Positions 62,634 through 63,392 of a stretch of 64,000 bases of DNA are shown here, one piece after another (within the stretch, counting starts at the first letter, position 1; each line of letters starts with the position of its first letter). This stretch comes from Escherichia phage JP4: sequence record PQ330092. One strand, 5' to 3'. The notes below the pieces were generated by a model. That model made no database searches. It had not been told where the DNA came from and saw nothing but the letters and a program-made list of their open reading frames with translations. Made by a program: the position numbers and the translations under genes.

Positions 62634-62662
62634 TTGGACATTTTAAATCTTAGTGATATAAT
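62634..62662 (+). promoter_or_regulatory. promoter TTGGAC-17-TGaTATAAT (extended -10)
   Basis: -35 62634-62639, -10 62657-62662. Confidence 0.55.
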
Positions 62663-62696
62663 ACTCACAACAACGAAATAATAGAGGAAATTAATA

Positions 62697-63392
62697 ATGG
62701 TTGAACAATTCATGTTTGGTGGTTATGCTAATGGCGAAGTACGTAACATTTCTATTCCTTACGTAGTTGAGAAAGTTAATGGTTCAGAACGTACATATGA
62801 TCTAGCATCTCGTATGATGCAAGACCGTATCATTTTCCTTGATACTGATTTCAATGATCAAATGGCACATATCATCAAACAACAATTGGTATGGTTAGAC
62901 TCACAAGGTGATTCCCCTATTACATTCTACATTAGTTCACCGGGTGGTTCAGTACACGCAGGTTTGGGTATTGCAGACGTTGCTAAGTCTTGTATTTCCC
63001 CAATTCGCACTGTAGTTATGGGTTATGCAGCATCAATGGGTTGCTATACACAATCTGTTATTGGGACTAAAGGTTTCCGTTTAGGTGGTAAACGCTCATA
63101 CTTCATGTGTCACCAAGTAAGTTCTGGTACACAAGGTCTAATTACAGACCAGAAGATTTCCCTACAACATTCTGATGCACTGAATACATTGTTGACCAAA
63201 GAAATTGCAGAAGCTGTAGGTGTATCACATGAACAATTACTAAAAGATGCTGACCGCGATTTGTGGTTAAATGCAGAAGAAGCACTTGAATATGGTGAAC
63301 ATGGTTTCATTGATGGCATTATTCTTGGACCACGTAACGAAGAAGGCAAGTACTTAGTTAAGCGTCGCGGCGGTGTAGAAGAGTGGGTGTAA
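62697..63392 (+). CDS. clpP: ClpP-type serine protease
   Basis: YISSPGGSVHAGLGI, catalytic-Ser context GYAASMG, MCHQ His context; colinear with E. coli ClpP. Confidence 0.85.
   Translation: MVEQFMFGGYANGEVRNISIPYVVEKVNGSERTYDLASRMMQDRIIFLDTDFNDQMAHIIKQQLVWLDSQGDSPITFYISSPGGSVHAGLGIADVAKSCISPIRTVVMGYAASMGCYTQSVIGTKGFRLGGKRSYFMCHQVSSGTQGLITDQKISLQHSDALNTLLTKEIAEAVGVSHEQLLKDADRDLWLNAEEALEYGEHGFIDGIILGPRNEEGKYLVKRRGGVEEWV

Follow-up and report, generated by a model that had tools for sequence, protein, structure and literature searches.

It is well established that phages exploit or evade the ATP-dependent proteases of their hosts; phages that supply a complete ClpAP(S) machine themselves have received much less study. 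In the cellular enzyme, the N-terminal axial loops of ClpP gate the pore and contact the unfoldase. Here, we analyzed the clpP gene of Escherichia phage JP4 (sequence record PQ330092) within a stretch of 64,000 nucleotides, referred to below as the window. Among jumbo phages, ClpP has been described as the most prominent of the patchily distributed peptidases, and host targeting has been proposed for it (Iyer et al. 2021, PMC7824862), while the Clp genes of phage Atu_ph07 have been listed and ClpA reported as conserved in Rak2-like phages (Attai et al. 2018, PMC6102473). The gene itself is already known: it has been deposited, named ClpP and discussed in these two comparative papers, and a host-directed role has already been proposed. 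Our search of the literature on phage-encoded ClpP, ClpA and ClpS returned only genomic remarks and no experimental work. New here are the explicit co-occurrence of a trio of genes for ClpP, ClpA and a ClpS-like protein, the promoter class common to clpP and clpA, its contrast with a gp21 protease under a late promoter, and the likely mis-annotation of clpP as "head maturation protease". We regard it as probable that ClpP serves as the peptidase component in a ClpAP(S) protease encoded by the phage itself, which would be made ahead of late gene expression and would have cytoplasmic host or phage proteins as its substrates.

The product of clpP is a genuine ClpP-family serine peptidase (MEROPS S14). 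It matches the Pfam family CLP_protease (PF00574) over residues 29-209 with 141.3 bits (E value 4.2e-41; gathering score 20.2), covering positions 2-179 of the 182 in the profile. A phmmer search against the PDB returned about 109 chains, all of them ClpP, with a top E value of 1.4e-36 and residues 20-208 aligned. The AlphaFold2 model of the monomer (predicted local distance difference test score, pLDDT, 92.2; predicted template modeling score, pTM, 0.85) has the ClpP alpha/beta fold with its handle helix, and Foldseek superimposed it on solved ClpP structures with template modeling (TM) scores of 0.90-0.95 and root-mean-square deviations of 1.1-2.1 A; the top 50 PDB matches were all ClpP (target TM score 0.88-0.95). 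An earlier interpretation of this DNA, made from its letters without database searches and called here the sequence-only reading, had claimed an alignment with bacterial ClpP along the length of the protein, and the Pfam, phmmer and fold comparisons all agree with it. The gene and its product comprise the following features:

62683..62688, + strand: ribosome-binding site AGAGGA, 8 nt 5' of the ATG, read from the sequence
62697..63392, + strand: clpP coding sequence, ATG to stop, 231 amino acids
63033..63035, + strand: codon of the catalytic Ser113 (GYAASMG), equivalent to E. coli Ser97, invariant
63111..63113, + strand: codon of the catalytic His139 (MCHQ), equivalent to E. coli His122, invariant
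63258..63260, + strand: codon of the catalytic Asp188 (DRD), equivalent to E. coli Asp171, invariant
Residues 1-19: N-terminal extension, variable, with low model confidence
Residues 20-209: ClpP core
Residues 210-231: clade-specific, conserved C-terminal extension of about 22 residues

Both active-site contexts named in that reading, GYAASMG (within VVMGYAASMGC) and MCHQ (within YFMCHQ), are found in the protein. Alignment also placed the complete Ser-His-Asp triad, with S113, H139 and D188 matching S97, H122 and D171 of an E. coli reference that we checked to be identical to PDB 3mt6; these three residues do not vary when the protein is aligned with 14 homologues (15 sequences) or with 61 (62 sequences). 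The phage enzyme is predicted to be catalytically competent.

Compared with bacterial ClpP (E. coli, PDB 1tyf/3mt6; S. aureus; T. thermophilus), the phage protein has the same fold, triad, SPGG motif and handle helix. It also retains the N-terminal axial-loop motif of cellular ClpP, P-x-V-x-E...ER-x-YD, in which P21, V23, E25, E31, R32 and D35 correspond to E. coli P4, V6, E8, E14, R15 and D18, and it shares with the bacterial enzymes an N-terminal extension; residues 1-19 may be a propeptide. The differences, apart from its being encoded by a virus, are a three-residue insertion before GFIDG, the C-terminal extension, which begins where E. coli ClpP stops, beside the IGL-loop site, and the docking cleft. 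At the eight positions that we take to line this cleft in E. coli ClpP, three residues are changed to small or polar ones (Y60T, F82S and L114G), Y62 and M92 are retained, and I90, F112 and L189 are conservatively retained. The hydrophobic cleft is where ClpP receives the IGF/IGL loops of its unfoldase (PMC7707817).

The phage protein is only 36% identical to the ClpP of the host and about 36-40% identical to bacterial ClpP proteins of solved structure; its nearest homologues outside the phage clade reach 43-53%. It scores below both NCBIfam models of canonical ClpP (TIGR00493, 151.6 bits against a cut-off of 308.6; NF001368, 155.2 against 249). These are equivalog cut-offs, and phage ClpP, which misses them, belongs to a virus-specific branch that has diverged within the family, rather than being an orthologue of the host gene. 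Within the phages, the protein is 100% identical in PBECO4, 121Q, SP27 and E9.1 and 66-75% identical in other Rak2-like genera. The window belongs to an Asteriusvirus jumbo coliphage: its DNA shows 97.5-99.4% identity to phages of this group with genomes of about 350 kb, including CRJP21, E9.1, SP27, PBECO4, 121Q and phAPEC6, many of which encode an identical ClpP protein.

To place clpP in a complete genome, we read the whole annotation of E9.1, which is 99% identical to the window, and checked its key genes against Pfam. The sequence-only reading had proposed a search for a ClpX-like partner. Local tblastn searches of E9.1 with E. coli ClpX and HslU revealed no homologue of either, both queries matching just the D2 ring of a phage ClpA. 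What the genome does encode is this full-length ClpA, including a docking tripeptide, together with a candidate ClpS-domain protein. Phage ClpA (762 amino acids; E9.1 record 163112-165400, outside the window) can be aligned with E. coli ClpA from end to end (E value 2.4e-180). It contains the domains AAA, AAA_lid_9, AAA_2 and ClpB_D2-small, with Walker A and B motifs intact in both rings, and its best NCBIfam model is TIGR02639 ClpA, at 754.7 bits, below the cut-off of 993. At the position of the ClpP-docking IGL of E. coli ClpA it has IGM, and the tripeptide reads IGV, LGM, VGM or IGF in other genera, so that a hydrophobic-Gly-hydrophobic motif is always kept in phage ClpA. ClpB-type disaggregases are not known to possess a ClpP-docking loop. 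As separate observations on chaperone genes, clpA of phage MIJ3 directly follows a DnaJ-like gene, and E9.1 also encodes GroES (Cpn10, 6.5e-17).

The ClpS-domain protein (181 amino acids; E9.1 record 246901-247446) begins with an N-terminal region of 73 residues. It matches PF02617 marginally, with 24.7 bits against a cut-off of 23, and in BLASTP is 29% identical to E. coli ClpS over 87 residues (E value 1e-5), with not all residues of the N-degron pocket aligned. The gene has diverged too far for a local tblastn search with E. coli ClpS, which missed it; Pfam alone revealed it.

We then counted the records per genus that matched phage ClpP, ClpA and the ClpS-like protein in tblastn searches of 50,697 phage records. 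The respective counts were 33, 32 and 33 for Escherichia, 10, 11 and 10 for Klebsiella, 8, 10 and 8 for Salmonella, and 8 each for Erwinia phages. Phages of Yersinia, Pectobacterium, Serratia, Cronobacter and Xanthomonas likewise carry all three, and CBB and its relatives have them together. Hence, the genes for ClpP, ClpA and the ClpS-like protein co-occur across the Rak2-like clade. Compared with the ClpAPS N-degron protease of E. coli, the phage genome has one homologue for each component, that of ClpS being a candidate; it differs in that the genes are dispersed and the docking loop reads IGM, IGV, LGM or VGM.

If it behaves like bacterial ClpP, the phage protein would build a barrel-shaped chamber into which an AAA+ unfoldase has to feed protein substrates. 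We infer that such an oligomer assembles and that its partner is most likely the phage's own ClpA, with which it would interact through the docking tripeptide; the ClpS-domain protein possibly steers phage ClpAP. The result would be a self-contained, ATP-dependent ClpAP(S) protease, transcribed from a sigma-70-like, extended -10 promoter class that is common to replication genes. Its targets would be cytoplasmic proteins of the infected cell, either those of the host or short-lived ones of the phage. If the trio works in this way, it would offer a tractable system to ask which proteins, of the host or its own, a large virus must destroy, and when.

The promoter evidence comes from the window and from the E9.1 genome. 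The elements in the window are:

62634..62640, + strand: -35-like element TTGGACA (TGGACA core), fitting the class consensus TGGGACAA from 25 genomic sites
62654..62662, + strand: extended -10 element TGATATAAT of clpP, from the sequence and a promoter scan
26606, 37900, 39661, 41368, 43346, 45303, 47453, 54950, 57200 and 62654, + strand: sites of TGATATAAT in the window

The clpP promoter is laid out as TGGACA-N13-TGATATAAT, which the scanner called as TGGACA-16-TATAAT with TG (11 of 12 matches). Against an expectation of about 1.9 for each strand, the window has ten exact copies of TGATATAAT on its + strand and one on its - strand, and nine of the ten have GAC or GAAC at a fixed offset. Throughout E9.1, all 25 copies of the pattern GAC-N14-TGnTATAAT lie on the + strand and none on the - strand, where the frequency of GAC would predict about 0.5; the consensus of these 25 sites is aaaa-N-TGGGACAA-N11-TGATATAAT. 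The class precedes clpP, clpA and the genes for DNA primase, SSB, an exonuclease and a gp55-like late sigma factor; at both clpP and clpA it takes the form xGACA-N13-TGATATAAT. Given that clpP and clpA have a promoter class in common with replication genes, the motifs suggest that both would be expressed along with these genes and ahead of the late genes. As the -35 element of the class (GGGACA) is unlike TTGACA, a phage sigma-70-like factor (E9.1 CDS0556) may read it. The extended -10 promoter that the sequence-only reading had assigned to clpP is therefore present and above chance, but it is not special to this gene, being one of about 25 sites of its class in the genome.

The promoter elements are kept in vB_Ec-M-J despite a diverged spacer, and in RaK2 and RCIP0023 the clpP promoter appears as TTGAC(A/T)...TGTTACAAT. 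A separate clpP promoter together with an intergenic hairpin was found in Asteriusvirus, the RaK2-like phages and PA5oct. In CBB, BF and 7t3, clpP starts 12-15 nt behind the preceding gene, too close for a promoter to fit in between. Upstream of the ClpS-like gene lies an IF3-like gene with a consensus TTGACA-17-TATAAT promoter. The main text of the RNA-sequencing paper on PA5oct gives no expression class for its ClpP.

Three further observations concern promoter-like sequences. A near-consensus sigma-70 match, TTGACA-17-TATGAT, lies at 62505-62533 in the 3' part of the upstream open reading frame (ORF) and is 164 nt away from the start of clpP; chance may account for it, as the region contains 9 promoter-like matches and 13.7 are expected from shuffles. 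At 41347-41417, the perfect hairpin GGTGACAGCAGATGTTGTTGTCACC begins within about 8 nt downstream of a class promoter (GAGACA...TGATATAAT) and is succeeded by T9, after which about 260 nt, to about 41680, contain no long ORF. This locus could give rise to a very short transcript or be an attenuator or small RNA locus; a scan of the whole window with Rfam at gathering thresholds returned no match, there or elsewhere. Finally, the annotated start of RaK2 ORF489 (ClpP, 249 amino acids; L009:3953-4702) lies inside its predicted TTGACA...TGTTACAAT promoter, and a start homologous to that in the window (MLDQFTFGG, after GAGGAAA) is more plausible.

In E9.1, clpP (record 78932-79627) comes after genes for a DNA ligase, a metallophosphoesterase and two proteins of unknown function, and lies 5' of small unknown genes and a dCMP deaminase gene. 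The block ligase...phosphoesterase-hypothetical-clpP...dCMP deaminase is kept in RaK2, CBB and Serratia phage BF, with the RaK2 gene at the phosphoesterase position annotated just as hypothetical, and the proximity of ligase and clpP is retained also in PA5oct. Other Rak2-like ClpP genes (PBECO4, 121Q, SP27, RaK2, GAP32, CBB and BF; more distantly PA5oct and Atu_ph07) have the same neighborhood and show no substantive difference from this one. The statement of the sequence-only reading that hypothetical genes precede clpP holds, since the upstream ORFs of the window have PHROG matches solely to families of unknown function. Its further suggestion, that clpP has a role other than in the prohead, is supported by the remote head module, the presence of a gp21-type protease and the candidate partner ClpA.

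RefSeq and Pharokka label clpP a head maturation (prohead) protease, and several records use this name; the top PHROG match of the product is indeed phrog_94, 'head maturation protease' (4.6e-44), a family without a curated cut-off. Such a function is very improbable and largely refuted. The product scores 51.3 bits with NF045542, the "ClpP-related head maturation protease" model (cut-off 120), and 49.7 bits with the fusion model NF045540 (cut-off 475), reaching neither cut-off. E9.1 encodes a T4-type portal at 194855 (PF07230, 5e-112), a T4 gp21-type prohead protease at 197866 (Peptidase_S77, 9.9e-21; phrog_207, 1.3e-58) and the major head protein at 199763, with a probable scaffold protein in the same head module. 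The gp21-type gene sits between those for the portal and the capsid. This module (194.9-200.9 kb) is 115-120 kb from clpP (78.9 kb), and the annotation places no portal or capsid gene within 20 kb of clpP. T4-late-like motifs (TATAAATA/ATAAATA) precede the genes for the gp21-like protease, scaffold, portal, capsid and sheath in E9.1, and none was found upstream of clpP; the same late-type motif has been reported at structural genes of CBB (PMC5259590). The virion proteome of phAPEC6, which is 98% identical to the window at the clpP locus, comprises 62 proteins, among them the gp21-like protease, scaffold, portal and capsid, and ClpP is absent from it (PMC7247149). Phage ClpP belongs to the same superfamily as the ClpP-related prohead proteases (NF045542 and, in part, PHROG 94) and has the Ser and His motifs in common with them, but its gene lies outside the head module, lacks a late promoter and coexists with a different prohead protease, and the axial loops with which cellular ClpP faces its unfoldase are retained in the protein. 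Capsid maturation is already accounted for by a T4 gp21-type enzyme of the head module, and we therefore do not regard clpP as encoding that protease. The label, assigned via PHROG 94, is probably a mistake that passes from one annotation to the next: NC_025447, NC_027364, NC_041917, PP886230 and other records so named belong to genomes that also have a gp21-type S77 protease. With the prohead role already held, clpP should be labeled ClpP in jumbo-phage records. Even less probable is that the protein is an inactive subunit serving as a decoy or poison, which would join host ClpP in mixed assemblies and so block Clp proteolysis in the host. Divergence of the cleft and the C-terminus allows this as a general possibility only, but the triad, oxyanion and handle regions are invariant in 62 homologues down to 43% identity, and the phage retains a complete ClpA and the ClpS-like protein.

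The remaining explanations accept an active ClpP and differ in its partner or its task, and here the evidence against a phage ClpAP(S) protease has to be weighed. In every genus examined, clpA lies between a virion protein gene and a giant virion protein gene of about 10 kb, and this position among structural genes could point to a role in assembly; its strand orientation is opposite to that of these neighbors. The genes clpP, clpA and that of the ClpS-like protein are scattered (at about 79, 163 and 247 kb, a span of 170 kb) and form no operon. The PDB matches of the ClpS-like protein are all ClpS but weak (E value 0.17), and it has no NCBIfam match. With three cleft residues changed, the docking of any unfoldase is putative. 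In addition, ClpP was detected in a CBB virion preparation by 1 peptide with 4.5% coverage (PMC5259590), and the PA5oct record flags ClpP with 'ESI-MS/MS'. These virion detections would fit an involvement of ClpP and ClpA in morphogenesis other than maturation of the capsid shell, as in trimming or quality control of giant tail, virion or internal head proteins, and so would the conserved synteny of clpA with the 10-kb virion protein gene and the presence of genes for virion proteins at 1.5-3 kb downstream of clpP. Yet the promoter of clpP is of the replication-gene class instead of TATAAATA, ClpP is missing from phAPEC6 virions, and the mass spectrometry lists that contain ClpP also hold non-structural enzymes. 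In PA5oct, MazG and DNA ligase have the same flag, a sign that abundant proteins of the cytoplasm may have been carried over. Overall, we judge a morphogenetic role distinctly unlikely. A partnership with the host unfoldases is unlikely as well, if not to the same degree. Phage ClpP would then work with host ClpX or ClpA, adding to or replacing host ClpP and raising or redirecting host Clp proteolysis, and phage ClpA would have a separate role as a chaperone or in assembly. The unfoldase-contacting axial-loop motif conserved with bacterial ClpP, the absence of a phage ClpX from E9.1, the location of clpA among structural genes and the suggestion by Iyer et al. of a possible part for phage ClpA or ClpX in the assembly of virions (PMC7824862) are all compatible with it. 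Against this stand the low identity to host ClpP, the diverged cleft residues and the conserved C-terminal extension beside the IGL-loop site, as well as the behavior of phage ClpA, which keeps its docking tripeptide in all genera, co-occurs strictly with ClpP and has the same promoter class.

We therefore favor the phage-encoded ClpAP(S) protease. A more far-reaching form of this proposal, which we consider tentative and on balance doubtful, is that Rak2-like phages possess an orthogonal ClpA-ClpP-ClpS system whose docking interface has co-diverged from that of the host and which destroys specific host or early phage proteins. In such a system, the ClpA loops IGM, IGV, LGM and VGM would be matched with the ClpP cleft changes Y60T, F82S/N and L114G, and the conserved 22-residue C-terminal extension of ClpP would emerge beside the cleft. 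The protease would be insulated from host ClpX, ClpA and host regulators, would be turned on with the replication genes and might have host targets such as defence or housekeeping factors. Comparison of ClpA loops with ClpP cleft residues in five genera gave a suggestive co-variation that is uninterpretable without a model of the complex. If true, this would amount to a regulated-proteolysis pathway owned by the virus, instead of one borrowed from the host.

Two features follow clpP in the window:

63401..63425, + strand: GC-rich intergenic hairpin with an 11-bp stem and a 3-nt loop, then UCUUUGU
63442..63732, + strand: conserved gene of 96 amino acids 3' of clpP, phrog_16159, from its PHROG match

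The phrog_16159 gene lies directly 3' of clpP in every Rak2-like genus examined. Folded within 61 nt of sequence, the hairpin has an energy of -17.9 kcal/mol (z = -2.9), and the U-tract behind it, UCUUUGU, is a weak one. As the terminator scan made no call at this site, we treat it as a hairpin and no proven terminator. Possible functions are those of a weak terminator or of an element for the 3' end or the stability of the RNA. Thus, a hairpin does follow the gene, as had been read from the letters, but it is a weak terminator at best. GC-rich hairpins of unrelated sequence occur 15-45 nt past the clpP stop in nine of nine lineages, against a genome background of about 33% G+C, and those of PA5oct and RaK2 have a clear T-run. 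In four lineages (EJP2, 7t3, CBB and BF), the hairpin falls within the first codons of the next ORF, where rare GGG/CCC codons form it (motif RGxxxP). RNA structure, and not termination, may accordingly have been under selection.

Further downstream, outside the window, lie two other peptidase genes. A second ClpP subunit, as in a ClpP1P2-like chamber, had been suspected from the SP27 name "clpP1" and from a "protease" gene 3.3 kb downstream. We rejected this protease (L001:25675-26283; at 83 kb in E9.1, record 82909-83517) as a chamber partner, as its N-terminus carries a signal or transmembrane segment and its ClpP/NfeD-type match, of 17.5 bits, stays below the threshold. It contains an SPGG motif and a candidate serine in CNSAC, and is probably a secreted or membrane peptidase of the ClpP superfamily. 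About 4.2 kb beyond clpP follows a gene for an HslV-like peptidase (L001:26611-27204; E9.1 record 83845-84438), which matches phrog_1040 (4e-24) and, weakly, HslV models of NCBIfam. Like an N-terminal-nucleophile protease, it has a threonine right after the initiator methionine (MTCIIAHTDG...) and a GSG motif.

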